Assembly (NCBI GenBank): GCA_963817955.1
Contig: CAWFQK010000004.1
Span: 1,280,001 to 1,344,000 of the forward strand
DNA: 64,000 bases
Reading direction: 5' to 3'
Source of the DNA: an uncultured Gemmatimonadaceae bacterium
GTDB taxonomy: Bacteria > Gemmatimonadota > Gemmatimonadetes > Gemmatimonadales > Gemmatimonadaceae
The notes under the pieces were generated by a model that was not told the DNA's origin, did not search any database, and was given only the letters and a program-made list of their open reading frames with translations. Both the position numbers and the translations under genes were made by a program. This document shows, piece after piece, positions 1-3,748 of the stretch (the stretch's first letter is position 1; each line of letters begins with the position of its first letter).

Positions 1-432
1 CTCACGCGTTACATGCGTCAACGAAAGAACGTCGCCTGATGGCAAGAAGGCTCACACCTCCCAGCGCGACATAGACGGCTATTGTCGCGGATACTGCGAG
101 TGTCTGCTGAGGCTGATATTGAAAATCGCCTTTGTCGGCGCGCGCCGTGCCGCAGCTTCTGTCAGTAGTCTTACCGTTGCCACCACCACGATCGTCGTCC
201 ATGCCGGATTGATCACGGCCATCGCGAAATACGGAATGAATGCTATCGAGCCACTCGCAGACTGCGGGAGCACAAAGCTCAACATGTCGGCTGCGACAGC
301 AAGCGCCGTCAATACTGCAAGCGCGGTCCAGCTACCCGTGACGCTGGCCGGCGCGACAAGGAAGACCACCGCAGTAATGATTGCGGCGATCATTCCAATG
401 ACCGCGACGTAAACCCGTGTCCGGACTCGCAT
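1..432 (-). CDS. N-terminal multi-pass membrane sensor region (MASE-like, typically fused to HD-GYP/GGDEF); frameshifted near 110 and ending at the window edge
   Basis: ATG at 432 after GGGGGT RBS. Hydrophobic helices MRVRTRVYVAVIG...KAIFNIS continue in another frame as QQTLAVSATIAVYVALGG. No catalytic domain is visible. Confidence 0.5.
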
Positions 433-466
433 AAAGAATGACCCCCTGCCCTCACTCACGTCCAAA

Positions 467-517
467 TCACCCAGTCCTGCCCCACATAAAGTTCAGAGCT
501 TGGCTGATCTTTTTCAT
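467..517 (-). CDS. Small 16-aa peptide MKKISQALNFMWGRTG
   Basis: Hand-translated. Strong Shine-Dalgarno AAGGGGGTGA just upstream of the ATG; stops 34 nt before the membrane sensor start. Confidence 0.6.
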   Translation of the reverse strand: MKKISQALNFMWGRTG

Positions 518-743
518 AGTTGCGTCACCCCCTTGGTCCGTCAGTCACACGTCACCGTGTGCTCCAAAGTGAGCTCCGCTCAACTACCTGGACTGAATTG
601 TCCTCCGCTCGTCTCCGCTTCAGCGAGGGAGGGGGTCGTATTTGTAATTTCTTTGAATTAGGGAATCGTACGGTGGGAGATCCTGCGGTTCCATCTCTAC
701 CACCAACAACCGCACCGCGTCGTCGCGGCCTGTCGGAGGGGCC

Positions 744-1505
744 TTACCGGTCCAACCAGCGATTTGTCGCGTCCAGCACAGCCAGCACGCTCGCCGTCTC
801 CGGGCTCTCGCGAACCTCCGCGCTTCCCGTCATCAGCGAGCTCTCGCGACCTTGCCGAGTCGTGACACCCACGAACACGAACTCGTGCTCGAATGCCTCG
901 ATCAGTTTGCAGCCCTCCAGCGCCAGCACCCGCTCCTCACCGTCCCCCTCCGCCTGTCGAATGGCCGACAGGGTGGCGCGGGCAGCAAGCTCAATGCGAA
1001 GGCGTTCGTTCTCTATGCCCTCCGCTTCGCCGACGTACGACTGTTCACCCTTCTTCAGCGTAACTCGGCAGGCAATTCCCTTTGACCGCGAGCGGCGTAC
1101 TTCCACATCCTCAAAGTAGATCCGGCGGCGCGCAATAGCTGGTTCGGAGGGGGCCGTCCGCTCCATCACCGAGCCGGCGGAGCCGACGGGCGCGTACGCC
1201 ACGGTCGGCAAGTGCAACGGTGTACTGGAGTTACGCGGTGTCTTGTCGCTCTCGTTGGACATCGCCACGCTGATCTTCTTATGGCTCACGCGCATCCCCA
1301 AATGGGCGATCAGCGCGCTCTCAACGTTTCGAACGGTCTGCTTGGGCGTGACGTCGGTGCCCGTCAATATGTGGATCTCTTCTACCGATCCGTTGGTCCC
1401 CGCGACGATGCGCGCCGAGATTACCCCGGGCAATGTGCCCAGGAGCTCTTCAGCGCGCTGAATTGGCAATACGCTGCCGGCTATCAAATTGGATTCGCCT
1501 GGCAT
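744..1505 (-). CDS. Conserved hypothetical cytoplasmic protein (EEIHIL...PKQTVRNVESAL N-domain, low-complexity linker, C-domain ending AVLDATNRW)
   Basis: ORF 744..1775; globular-looking sequence starts at the ATG at 1505. Confidence 0.8.
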   Translation of the reverse strand: MPGESNLIAGSVLPIQRAEELLGTLPGVISARIVAGTNGSVEEIHILTGTDVTPKQTVRNVESALIAHLGMRVSHKKISVAMSNESDKTPRNSSTPLHLPTVAYAPVGSAGSVMERTAPSEPAIARRRIYFEDVEVRRSRSKGIACRVTLKKGEQSYVGEAEGIENERLRIELAARATLSAIRQAEGDGEERVLALEGCKLIEAFEHEFVFVGVTTRQGRESSLMTGSAEVRESPETASVLAVLDATNRWLDR

Positions 1506-1668: not shown

Positions 1669-3222
1669 TCATTCCACCGCGTACTCGTACTCCGGCATTC
1701 GGTATTCCTTGATCTTGCGGTACAGTGTGCGCTCGCCAATGCCGAGCATCTCTGCCGCACGCCGCCGGTTGCCACGTGTCTCTTTCAGCACCAACTCGAT
1801 CGCCGAGCGCTCAATGTCCGCCATCTTCATCCCGGCCGCAATGACCACCACGTTTGGCGGCGGGGCCTGGTCGCGCGGCTCGATGGCCGGCGCCGTCGGT
1901 GCCACGATGGCCGGCGGATGAATTTCCCCCAGCCAACCGTCGTTCACCGGCACCTGATGATCGCCCACGCGGCGGCGTAGCTCTTCTACCTGAAGCCGGA
2001 GCTCGAGCAGGCTGCGCACGATGAACTCCAATTCGCGCCCGCTGGCGCTCTCCTGCCCGCGCACGATTGGCCCAACGTGTACGGGCAGAAAGCGTCCCTC
2101 AGGCCCTTCCTTTATCTGCCGCGGCAGGTCGCCCGGCTGGATCTCGCGCCCCGGCGACAGCACCACCATATTCTCGATGAGGTTCCGCAGCTCGCGCACG
2201 TTTCCCGGCCATGCATACTCCACGAGCTTCTGCATCGCCTCGGCGGAGATCCCGTGGAACGGCCGGTCGTGTTCGCGCGAGTAATCGTGAACGAACCGGC
2301 GCACGAGAAACGGAATGTCTTCCGGCCGTTCGCGAAGGGGCGGCAGGTAGATGCGCAGCACGTTGAGCCGGTAGAACAGGTCGGCCCTGAAGCGGCGCTC
2401 CTCCACCAGCTCGCGCAATGGCTGATTGGTGGCGGCAATGACGCGCACGTCCACCTTGATCGGCTGCACGCCACCCACTCGCATGAACTCGCGCTCCTCG
2501 AGCACGCGCAGGAACTTGACCTGTGTCGACGAAGGGATCTCACCGATCTCGTCGAGGAACAGTGTTCCGCTATCCGCCAGCTCGAATCGCCCCAGCCGGC
2601 GCTCGGCGGCGCCAGTAAACGCTCCCTTCTCGTGCCCGAACAACTCGCTCTCGAGCAGGCTCTCGGACAGCGCGCCGACGTTCACGGCAATGAATGGCTT
2701 GTTGCGCCGGTTGCTGAGCAATCGGATGGCCCGTGCCACGAGCTCCTTGCCGGTGCCGCTCTCGCCTTCAATGAGCACGGTGCTCGAGACGGGCGCCATC
2801 TGCTCCACCTGCACCATCACCTCGCGCATGCCGTCGCTCTCGCCAATCAACCCCGTGAGCCGCTGAAGCCGCCGGCGCTCGAGTATGCGACGCACCCCGC
2901 CAAGGACTTCGTCCACATTCACCGGCTTGGGAAACAGGTCGACGAAGCCGACGGTGCGCAGGCGCTCCAGCTGCGCCGGATCGACGTTGTCGGCCAGCCC
3001 CACGGCCGCTGCACCCTCCCAGAGCTGTTCCTTGACGATGGCTGCCGTGGACGAGTCGGCGAGCTCGCCGCTGAACACGATCAGATCGGGTTTCTCGCGC
3101 TTGAGCGCCGCGCGAATGTCGTCGAGCGGCGACACCAGCGCGGTCTCGACGCCATCGCGCTCGAGGAGCGCGTTGAGCCGAACCGCCGGCTCGACGTCAT
3201 TCAGCGTGAGAAGAACCTTCAT
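1669..3222 (-). CDS. Sigma54-dependent enhancer-binding protein with degenerate receiver domain
   Basis: Walker A GESGTGKE, GAFTGA loop, LFLDEI, WPGNVREL, C-terminal Fis-type HTH. Confidence 0.92.
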   Translation of the reverse strand: MKVLLTLNDVEPAVRLNALLERDGVETALVSPLDDIRAALKREKPDLIVFSGELADSSTAAIVKEQLWEGAAAVGLADNVDPAQLERLRTVGFVDLFPKPVNVDEVLGGVRRILERRRLQRLTGLIGESDGMREVMVQVEQMAPVSSTVLIEGESGTGKELVARAIRLLSNRRNKPFIAVNVGALSESLLESELFGHEKGAFTGAAERRLGRFELADSGTLFLDEIGEIPSSTQVKFLRVLEEREFMRVGGVQPIKVDVRVIAATNQPLRELVEERRFRADLFYRLNVLRIYLPPLRERPEDIPFLVRRFVHDYSREHDRPFHGISAEAMQKLVEYAWPGNVRELRNLIENMVVLSPGREIQPGDLPRQIKEGPEGRFLPVHVGPIVRGQESASGRELEFIVRSLLELRLQVEELRRRVGDHQVPVNDGWLGEIHPPAIVAPTAPAIEPRDQAPPPNVVVIAAGMKMADIERSAIELVLKETRGNRRRAAEMLGIGERTLYRKIKEYRMPEYEYAVE

Positions 3223-3262
3223 GGCAATGGGAACAGGGCGATGGACAGTGGGCGAAGCAGCG

Positions 3263-3748
3263 TCACCCGGCGTGATCGTAATGATCGGCGCAGAGAACGG
3301 TGAGCGCATGGTCGATGATCGGATCCAGAGCAGCCAGGCCGTCAGTCACGCCGCTCGTCGATCCCGGCAGGTTCACTATAAGCGTTTTCTTACGGACGCC
3401 GCTCAGTCCACGCGACAGGGCGGCCCGCGGAAAGGTTTGTAGCGACAGCACGCGAATGCGCTCGGCAATGCCCGGCGCCTCGCGTTCGATCACGGCTCGC
3501 GTCGCCTCTGGCGTGACGTCGCGCGGGCCAAGTCCGGTACCGCCAGTGGTGAGCACCAGATCGGCAGCTTTGGTGTCGCACCAGCGGGTGAGCGCATCGG
3601 TAATCCGAACCGGTTCGTCGGGGACGAGCGCGCGGAGCACGATCTCATAGCCGCGCGCTGTTCCCCATGCTGCAACTGCATCCCCCGACGTGTCGGCGCG
3701 CTCACCGCGCGCGCCGGCGTCGGAGATGGTCAGAATAGCTAGACGCAT
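3263..3748 (-). CDS. mog: MogA/MoaB molybdopterin adenylyltransferase
   Basis: TISD, TTGGTGLGPRDVTPEA and NLPGS motifs. Confidence 0.9.
   Translation of the reverse strand: MRLAILTISDAGARGERADTSGDAVAAWGTARGYEIVLRALVPDEPVRITDALTRWCDTKAADLVLTTGGTGLGPRDVTPEATRAVIEREAPGIAERIRVLSLQTFPRAALSRGLSGVRKKTLIVNLPGSTSGVTDGLAALDPIIDHALTVLCADHYDHAG

Follow-up and report, generated by a model that had tools for sequence, protein, structure and literature searches.

What does a 16-codon open reading frame (ORF) with a strong ribosome-binding site do between the gene for a 253-amino acid (aa) protein, P0001, and the gene for a multi-transmembrane (TM) protein? The locus that raises this question lies at the start of a 64,000-nucleotide (nt) stretch of contig CAWFQK010000004.1, from an uncultured Gemmatimonadaceae bacterium (GCA_963817955.1); we refer to the whole stretch as the window. 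A reading of the letters alone (the original prediction) had suggested that the short ORF may encode a peptide ligand or membrane partner of the TM protein, the latter perhaps fused to an HD-GYP domain, the phosphodiesterase of cyclic di-GMP (c-di-GMP) turnover. The micro-ORF is present at 467-517 as that prediction described it, and the genes around it are indeed co-oriented, all on the minus strand, in the order sigma-54 activator (3309 to 1669), P0001 (1505 to 744), leader RNA, micro-ORF (517 to 467) and membrane HD-GYP gene, with a spacer of 226 nt between P0001 and the micro-ORF. Its ribosome-site motif AGGRGGTGA occurs only once in the window, at 534-522, yet at least one match arose in 43 of 100 shuffles. 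We favor, with reserve, the answer that the micro-ORF is a translated upstream ORF (uORF) within a conserved, structured leader of a MASE9-HD-GYP gene, and that it gates translation of that gene.

The conservation of the short ORF was assessed through homologs of P0001. A species-representative collection contains 581 stretches encoding a P0001 relative, and the best 80 of these, all titled Gemmatimonad metagenome-assembled genomes, were examined together with the window's own locus and nine further loci at the level of the order (90 loci). The micro-ORF is kept among relatives, contrary to a refutation that the original prediction had named: among the 64 loci with 600 nt or more beyond the P0001 homolog, it is complete in 63. 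In the single exception, L044, the ORF reads on, and the HD-GYP gene of the same genome is also broken. The micro-ORF was also found in seven shorter loci, five more loci are cut inside it, and its spread takes in three families of the order and a second order. Start codons (n = 70) are ATG in 57 copies, GTG in 12 and TTG in one, and the frame is open in 69 of 69 distinct copies, compared with 11 and 25 of 69 for the other two frames. Because it is complete in so many loci and its frame is open in every distinct copy, the ORF is more than a product of chance and represents a real, widely conserved micro-gene. The 69 distinct peptides are 15 to 35 aa long (median 19), with 21 of them at 15 to 17 aa. 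Nine independent close pairs, when pooled, show 32 synonymous changes in 114 sites and 41 non-synonymous changes in 384 sites, a ratio of non-synonymous to synonymous change (pN/pS) of ~0.38, which points to purifying selection on the micro-ORF. Under such selection the micro-ORF product probably also matters as a peptide, and its composition and its Trp, described next, likewise suggest that it is functional.

The peptides are hydrophobic. Leu, Ala, Phe, Ile, Val and Trp together make up 58% of residues, and Lys, Arg, Asp and Glu 7%, with a mean grand average of hydropathy (GRAVY) of 0.99. The conserved "WG" near the peptide end that had been expected was not borne out; what is conserved is Trp as the next-to-last residue. 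Of the 69 peptides, 49 have their last Trp at this penultimate position and 11 at the very end, and in 68 it falls among the final six residues. Trp accounts for 8.6% of all residues, and several peptides contain three or four. One of six peptides of at least 20 aa is present, without a name, in a collection of 15 billion proteins. In relatives, of which MKNIRSQFWGAVVIWG and MTNLSQKFLGVGTVIWI are examples from the genus of the window, the family ending Trp-x-stop stands directly at a conserved stem, and in the window that ending can be read only in the frame entered after a GGGG run, where the peptide would close with GQDWVIWT and a stop codon (458-456) that abuts the stem as in relatives. Because the family-typical ending is readable only in this other frame, the last four codons as written, G-R-T-G, are probably the product of a 1-nt indel, and the window's copy is probably defective or mis-assembled. 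Peptides of the window's clade have polar N-termini.

The leader between P0001 and the micro-ORF is, within the genus, more conserved than the genes that flank it. In an alignment of 55 diverse sequences (A4), a C-rich 5' strand comes first; two GAGCG(R)AG boxes and then an invariant box follow it, and between that box and the ribosome site stands a variable hairpin whose end is GAC. No covariance-model match at E ≤ 1 was obtained for locus L001 (4,600 nt, both strands) with Rfam 15, which includes c-di-GMP-I and -II. The invariant box, here called anti-SD1, is complementary to GGGAGGUGACGC at the Shine-Dalgarno site of the micro-ORF (SD1), with a tandem G-A/A-G in the middle of the helix. Eight pairs form this helix, with 98% of cells paired, and one of them changes from CG to UA in 10 of the 55 sequences; the complementarity of the invariant box to the ribosome site explains why the five bases after the Shine-Dalgarno core never vary. 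When the anti-SD/SD1 helix is taken together with the base of the hairpin, 93.9% of cells are paired, compared with 24-50% when the strands are slid by one to three columns, and the covariation score was reached in none of 500 shuffles. The variable hairpin carries compensatory changes at two pairs in 7 of 17 genus sequences, and three of its four base pairs have changed on both sides among the 55 sequences. RNAalifold, applied to the diverse leader alignment, returned only the anti-SD/SD pairing (seven pairs), with the region of boxes 1 and 2 lacking a single consensus fold. The second GAGCG box can pair with the 5' strand in place of the 3' strand of the closing stem (columns 11-17 with 38-45 in the leader-only consensus fold of the genus), and alternative folds are therefore possible. 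The small GGAC-AATTCA-GTCC hairpin has four pairs, none of which varies, so that it is uninformative.

The C-rich 5' strand of the leader pairs across the micro-ORF with a G-rich strand just ahead of the HD-GYP start codon and so forms a closing stem (Table 1), which has a median length of 18 pairs (range 12-26) across the relatives. The first paired base of its 3' strand lies 0-5 nt past the micro-ORF stop in 61 of 65 copies (median 1), and the stop stays at the stem although the ORF varies from 15 to 35 codons; in the window this placement holds only in the alternative frame. Cognate strands form duplexes with a mean energy of -29.3 kcal/mol, compared with -22.1 kcal/mol for the mean of the per-locus median non-cognate energies (66 loci; short windows were used, as 100-nt 5' windows had proved noisy). 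In 64 of the 66 loci the cognate pair outscores half or more of the diverged non-cognate partners, and in 39 it outscores 90% or more; in L108, L117, L088, L045, L047 and L041 the strands are unrelated in sequence with their complementarity kept. The ATG of the HD-GYP gene follows the micro-ORF stop at a median distance of 29 nt (range 16-104). A U run follows the stem in only part of the relatives, and a scan of the window from 380 to 1700 found neither a consensus promoter nor a consensus terminator.

Table 1. Features of the locus, in window coordinates
Feature	Position	Strand	Remarks
5' part of the MASE9-HD-GYP gene, broken	1..432	(-)	Likely ATG 432-430; first frame stops at 81-79; second frame runs 202 to 2; the rest lies beyond the window start in further frames
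Closing stem, 3' strand	440..455	(-)	GTGAGGGCAGGGGGTC; includes the G run before the HD-GYP start
GGGG run (483-480), then alternative frame of the micro-ORF	456..483	(-)	Family-typical end GQDWVIWT, stop 458-456; probable 1-nt indel
Micro-ORF as written	467..517	(-)	16 codons, MKKISQALNFMWGRTG then stop
Shine-Dalgarno context of the micro-ORF	522..534	(-)	AAGGGGGTGACGC; GG(A/G)GGTGACGC + 2-5 nt + start codon in nearly all loci
Variable hairpin ending in conserved GAC	544..562	(-)	Compensatory changes
Anti-SD1 box, invariant	566..581	(-)	GAGCGGAGCTCACTTT (GAGCGGAGCC(A/G)ACC in most relatives); complementary to the micro-ORF ribosome site
Small hairpin GGAC-AATTCA-GTCC	590..603	(-)	Invariant within the genus
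Two GAGCG-type boxes	602..621	(-)	GAAGCGGAG at 621-613 and GAGCGGAGG at 610-602; conserved columns in A4
Closing stem, 5' strand	623..637	(-)	GACCCCCTCCCTCGC; pairs with 455-440, 16 pairs, duplex -33.7 kcal/mol
P0001, two-domain protein of 253 aa	744..1505	(-)	No Pfam or NCBIfam family; N-terminal alpha/beta domain, variable linker, C-terminal LeuA-like fold
NtrC-type sigma-54 activator, 546 aa, intact	1669..3309	(-)	Receiver-like N-terminus; Pfam Sigma54_activat (E 1.1e-69), AAA_lid_14, HTH_8
MoaB/Mog-like ORF, 161 aa	3263-3748	(-)	Named by eye from translation and synteny; upstream of the NtrC-like gene
GcvT-like ORF, 401 aa	3780-4985	(-)	Named by eye from translation and synteny; upstream of the NtrC-like gene

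The gene behind the stem begins with the multi-TM ORF that carries the KAIFN motif (465 to 79 in the list of ORFs). The supposition that it is fused to an HD-GYP domain, with the output domain outside the window, proved correct: HHENWDGTGYP and HDVGK can be read in the adjoining DNA as a continuation of the TM gene, and HD_5 (PF13487) matches the C-terminal half of an intact ortholog (L029) with E 2.4e-34 and was detected in each of the 35 relatives. Pfam MASE9 (PF20972) accounts for the membrane half in 25 of 35 intact relatives (E ≤ 0.01), the L074 ortholog scoring 31.2 bits against a cut-off of 24.3, and the Asn of KAIFN is invariant (N105 in alignment A3, 35 proteins). No MASE9 match was obtained for the window's own copy, either with the 79-465 protein against Pfam or in a six-frame family search of the whole genome, as expected for a broken and diverged copy. 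That copy lies in at least five pieces with at least four frame changes and has no single uninterrupted frame; with the shift in the micro-ORF included, five frame changes fall within 1.6 kb, and no nonsense substitutions were seen in the aligned pieces. Three other few-contig assemblies (G005, G024 and G032) likewise have a broken HD-GYP gene, and 39 related loci have an intact one (at least 400 aa). The frame shifts in the window's copy represent either decay or assembly error. A search of public sequencing runs listed no RNA run, and two soil DNA runs with a small share of matching words gave three 151-nt contigs, at L001 1359-1509, 1665-1815 and 2697-2847, and these leave the frame-shift sites uncovered. 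In L033, from assembly G024, a GcvT gene at 108-1227 is split into two frames, so this assembly has frame errors outside the HD-GYP gene too.

From the anatomy, conservation and covariation of the leader we infer a direction of control. A terminating ribosome holds the first 10-12 nt past the stop codon inside its mRNA channel, and with the stem starting 0-5 nt past the stop, a ribosome that finishes the micro-ORF must open the stem, which argues for uORF-gated translation. The anti-SD box would decide whether the micro-ORF is translated: with SD1 free of the box, a ribosome would translate the micro-ORF and, on reaching its stop codon, would have melted most of the closing stem, freeing the G-rich and pyrimidine-rich initiation region of the HD-GYP gene. 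Translation of that gene could then come from the same ribosome by re-initiation, probable over a spacer of ~29 nt, or from a new ribosome, and the input to the anti-SD switch could be temperature, a ligand, or a protein such as P0001. The original prediction was right in its small conserved ORF, its synteny and its HD-GYP enzyme, and missed the structured leader, whose geometry points first to a cis-regulatory uORF. Three other ideas about the leader were abandoned: a sigma-54 promoter ahead of it, for which inspection by eye gave no convincing match; recognition of the GAGCG boxes by a protein of the TRAP or CsrA kind; and the leader as a genomic repeat behind contig breaks, BLAST and the covariance model each finding one copy.

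Several observations weigh against gating. In the sequences read, 9-27 nt separate the G run from the HD-GYP ATG, which in some loci is too far for a normal Shine-Dalgarno interaction, and for L078 and L105 the windows used gave no closing stem that convinces. The window's own locus has 11 nt between the micro-ORF stop as written and the stem, and its HD-GYP gene is broken. There is hardly any variation in the anti-SD box, in SD1 or in the C/G cores of the stem, three of the eight anti-SD pairs never varying and only one showing a double change, so that much of the pairing is beyond the reach of covariation. Finally, a uORF that only delivers ribosomes requires no conservation of its peptide, yet hydrophobicity, Trp and a pN/pS below 1 have been kept.

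This last point leads to a second role, one not exclusive of uORF gating and that we put forward tentatively: the product may be a small hydrophobic membrane peptide that binds MASE9 within the membrane and tunes the phosphodiesterase, the RNA architecture serving mainly to ensure joint production. The hydrophobic composition, near-terminal Trp and purifying selection speak for such a partner, and the authors who defined MASE9 suggest, in the parts of their preprint covered here, that the domain binds a ligand within the membrane (10.1101/2021.11.05.467447). Most of the peptides, however, at a median of 19 aa and with 21 of 69 at 15-17 aa, are too short for a bilayer-spanning helix, and the polar N-termini in the window's clade also speak against a membrane partner. 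Co-folding of peptide and sensor, proposed at the outset as a check, was run on the 31-aa L074 peptide, the one long enough for the tool, with its own MASE9, and gave support of a weak class only, 0.56 against 0.00 for the best control. Runs agreed in at least 72% of contacts and the pLDDT (predicted local distance difference test) of the partner was at least 64. Of 157 solved complexes 116 reach the pass mark, as do 2 of 215 mismatched pairs, but passes with a score of 0.60 or under comprise only 18 of the solved complexes and both of the mismatches; the two replacement partners were unrelated natural 31-residue proteins of unstated hydrophobicity.

The divergence of the membrane domain also bears on a peptide partner. 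Mean pairwise identity (A3) is 33% in MASE9, against 60% in the catalytic domain and 64% in P0001, and in four loci whose P0001 proteins are 92-96% identical, two peptide types track two MASE9 types, with MASE9 identity of 60-61% within and 33-39% between types. A partial Mantel test gave r = 0.154, a value reached by 39 of 2000 permutations. However, the peptide and MASE9 are adjacent, so that linkage alone could yield both the matching types and the Mantel result, and the pairwise divergence can extend beyond the gene, so that paralog replacement is also possible. The MASE9 half changes at about double the rate of the catalytic half and of the neighboring gene, and some locus pairs with P0001 94-96% identical retain only 24-36% identity in MASE9. 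A stronger form of the partner idea, which we consider doubtful, makes the micro-peptide an intramembrane ligand or subunit of MASE9, with peptide and sensor diversifying into specificity types on conserved flanks, as in agr although without export, and with the leader timing production of the pair. If it were true, the broken contigs and the frame shifts in the consensus here would be traces left by types that co-exist.

It is unlikely that the micro-ORF acts as a nascent-peptide or Trp-codon sensor, in which the UGG one codon before the stop would pause the ribosome, through scarce charged tRNA-Trp or through tunnel arrest at Trp-x-stop, and the length of the pause would set the state of the stem. 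The position of the last Trp, the high Trp content and the peptides with three or four Trp residues are in its favor, and a peptide of 15-35 aa is still inside the ribosome at termination, as with short leader peptides such as tna and erm. The controlled gene, an HD-GYP gene, nevertheless has no link to tryptophan metabolism, and the marks of a ribosome-mediated amino acid attenuator of the trp-leader type are absent: there is usually a single regulatory-type codon (UGG), there is no terminator-like site in the window between 380 and 1700, and the U run after the stem is confined to some relatives. A Trp sensor would also leave the hydrophobic N-terminal part of the peptide unexplained.

Very improbable is an untranslated ORF, in which the leader would work at the RNA level alone, as a riboswitch or by binding a protein, and the frame would be open only as a consequence of a spacer that is U-rich and weakly structured. 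In its favor, the micro-ORF region is 49% G+C, compared with 66% in the neighboring gene, and codon position 2 is most often T, so that hydrophobic codons could follow from base composition, and within the genus the leader surpasses the coding DNA beside it in conservation, but a near-consensus Shine-Dalgarno site and, at fixed spacing, a start codon are present in ~70 loci, the frame is open in all 69 copies with an excess of synonymous change, and the stop is fixed at the stem over the full range of ORF lengths. An exported signaling peptide was dropped, as the row contains no export or processing genes.

The genes upstream belong to the same conserved row. Across the order, the order GcvT, MoaB-like gene, NtrC-like gene, P0001, leader with micro-ORF and MASE9-HD-GYP gene is kept, and the row was found again in a second order; the synteny of the short ORF with its two neighbors, whose absence elsewhere the original prediction had named as a refutation, thus holds across one order and into another. 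The sigma-54 activator, the first gene of the row, is syntenic in relatives, and the remainder of the window consists of closely packed long ORFs of up to 1050 aa. In family f2, loci L045 (1745-3454), L046 and L047 carry a 4Fe-4S/Fe-hydrogenase-like/GGDEF protein (GGDEF E 1.4e-41) between the NtrC-like gene and the P0001 homolog, so that a diguanylate cyclase and the HD-GYP gene share one row there; a response regulator is also inserted in the row of L045.

Homologs of P0001 were found in 41 of 41 related genomes searched (E ≤ 0.001), some of them paralog-level matches to the C-terminal half only. No family match at E ≤ 1 was obtained for P0001, and the cut-off of the LeuA allosteric/dimerization domain PF08502 (24.9 bits) was not reached. 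In the structural model (pLDDT 81.6) a disordered linker joins a small alpha/beta domain at the N-terminus to a C-terminal domain whose predicted fold resembles the allosteric domain of LeuA and citramalate synthase (Foldseek 3hpz_A, E 5.2e-5; 3f6g_A, E 1.4e-3), a modeled likeness of fold and not membership of the family. A stand-alone paralog of the C-terminal domain, 153 aa long and ending in AVLNATNRV, lies at L002:1471-1932 (contig C2); it occurs once per genome in most relatives, at 27-32% identity, and matches LeuA_dimer weakly (15.5 bits, E 0.017, below the 24.9-bit cut-off). In L016 (G020), and only there, an 11-nt unit (GGTGGACCGGT-like, ~6 copies) is repeated in tandem in the first 75 nt after the stop of the P0001 homolog, before the leader.

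A covariance model of the leader (R1), which is biased toward family f1, matched 46 of 151 genomes sampled across the phylum: 24 of 31 in f1, 19 of 71 in f2, 2 of 6 in f6 and none in the other sampled families. There is one copy in the genome of the window and there are two matches in three genomes; the two second copies inspected are both followed by a micro-ORF and a gene of the TM-HD-GYP type. Contigs tend to end near this element: 23 of the 80 relatives' contigs (L049-L128) have less than 500 nt left downstream of the P0001 homolog and not one of the 80 has less than 1000 nt upstream of it, and among 30 scanned loci with little DNA after the P0001 homolog, eight are cut inside the leader and five at or inside the micro-ORF. 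As a conjecture, both the contig breaks and the indels in long-read consensus sequences would be accounted for by co-occurring strains in which the conserved leader precedes a cassette that diverges fast. In practice, gene callers overlook a conserved gene at this locus, which is also a place where assemblies of metagenomes are prone to breaks and miscalls.

The level of c-di-GMP, the switch between motile and attached life, is set by HD-GYP enzymes, and we know of no established control of the membrane-bound MASE9 class and of no signal for the MASE9 domain. The locus offers a sharply defined control module: its RNA motif is not in Rfam, its micro-protein family has no annotation, and covariation supports its stem. 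If the peptide binds MASE9, it would provide the first handle on the signal of the sensor and the first ligand class for the domain, and would link a micro-protein directly to c-di-GMP turnover. Literature and databases were searched, supplements lying outside the search, and no description of the module was found. In the parts covered, the preprint of Galperin and Chou, a census of HD-GYP proteins, mentions no upstream micro-ORF or leader (10.1101/2021.11.05.467447), and the string "Gemmatimon" is absent both from it and from a noncoding RNA paper on 50 genomes, in each case with supplements outside the search.

Known systems resemble parts of the module. MgrB with PhoQ, KdpF with KdpABC and AcrZ with AcrB are small membrane-protein modulators of membrane sensors and pumps, mostly of ~30-50 aa and with binding shown. 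As with these, the micro-ORF encodes a tiny hydrophobic product next to, or co-expressed with, a polytopic membrane protein; unlike them, its median length is 19 aa, and binding is suggested by a weak co-fold. In the staphylococcal agr system the AgrD peptide and the AgrC sensor form specificity groups, and here too a gene for a short peptide diverges jointly with the membrane portion of the sensor next to it, both far faster than their flanks. Unlike agr, the locus shows no processing or export gene, signal-type precursor or histidine kinase, and paralog replacement is an alternative to recombination.

The controlled gene has the domain architecture of the MASE9-HD-GYP phosphodiesterases Thermotoga maritima TM1467 and Streptomyces venezuelae HdgA, as far as these are described in the parts of the preprint covered (10.1101/2021.11.05.467447). 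For the gating itself the closest parallels, in the portions of the two reports consulted, are mgtQ before mgtB in Salmonella, where translation of a uORF is needed to express a gene with a masked initiation region (PMC8092293), and the ppe2 uORF behind a B12 riboswitch in Mycobacterium tuberculosis, where an RNA switch controls the uORF and expression proceeds by termination-reinitiation (PMC11260477). The likeness lies in a short ORF that has a ribosome site of its own and closely precedes a gene with its initiation region in a stem. Unlike in mgtQ and ppe2, the stem here is long-range, closing a whole leader of ~200-280 nt plus the ORF, and the leader motif is absent from Rfam; and unlike mgtQ, which has eight codons, the micro-ORF is longer, its product is conserved in character, the controlled gene encodes a c-di-GMP phosphodiesterase, and the system is known from its sequence. 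A uORF that opens a masked initiation region is a known type of mechanism; the RNA motif, the micro-protein family and the strict tie of both to MASE9-HD-GYP genes are what the papers and databases searched did not contain.

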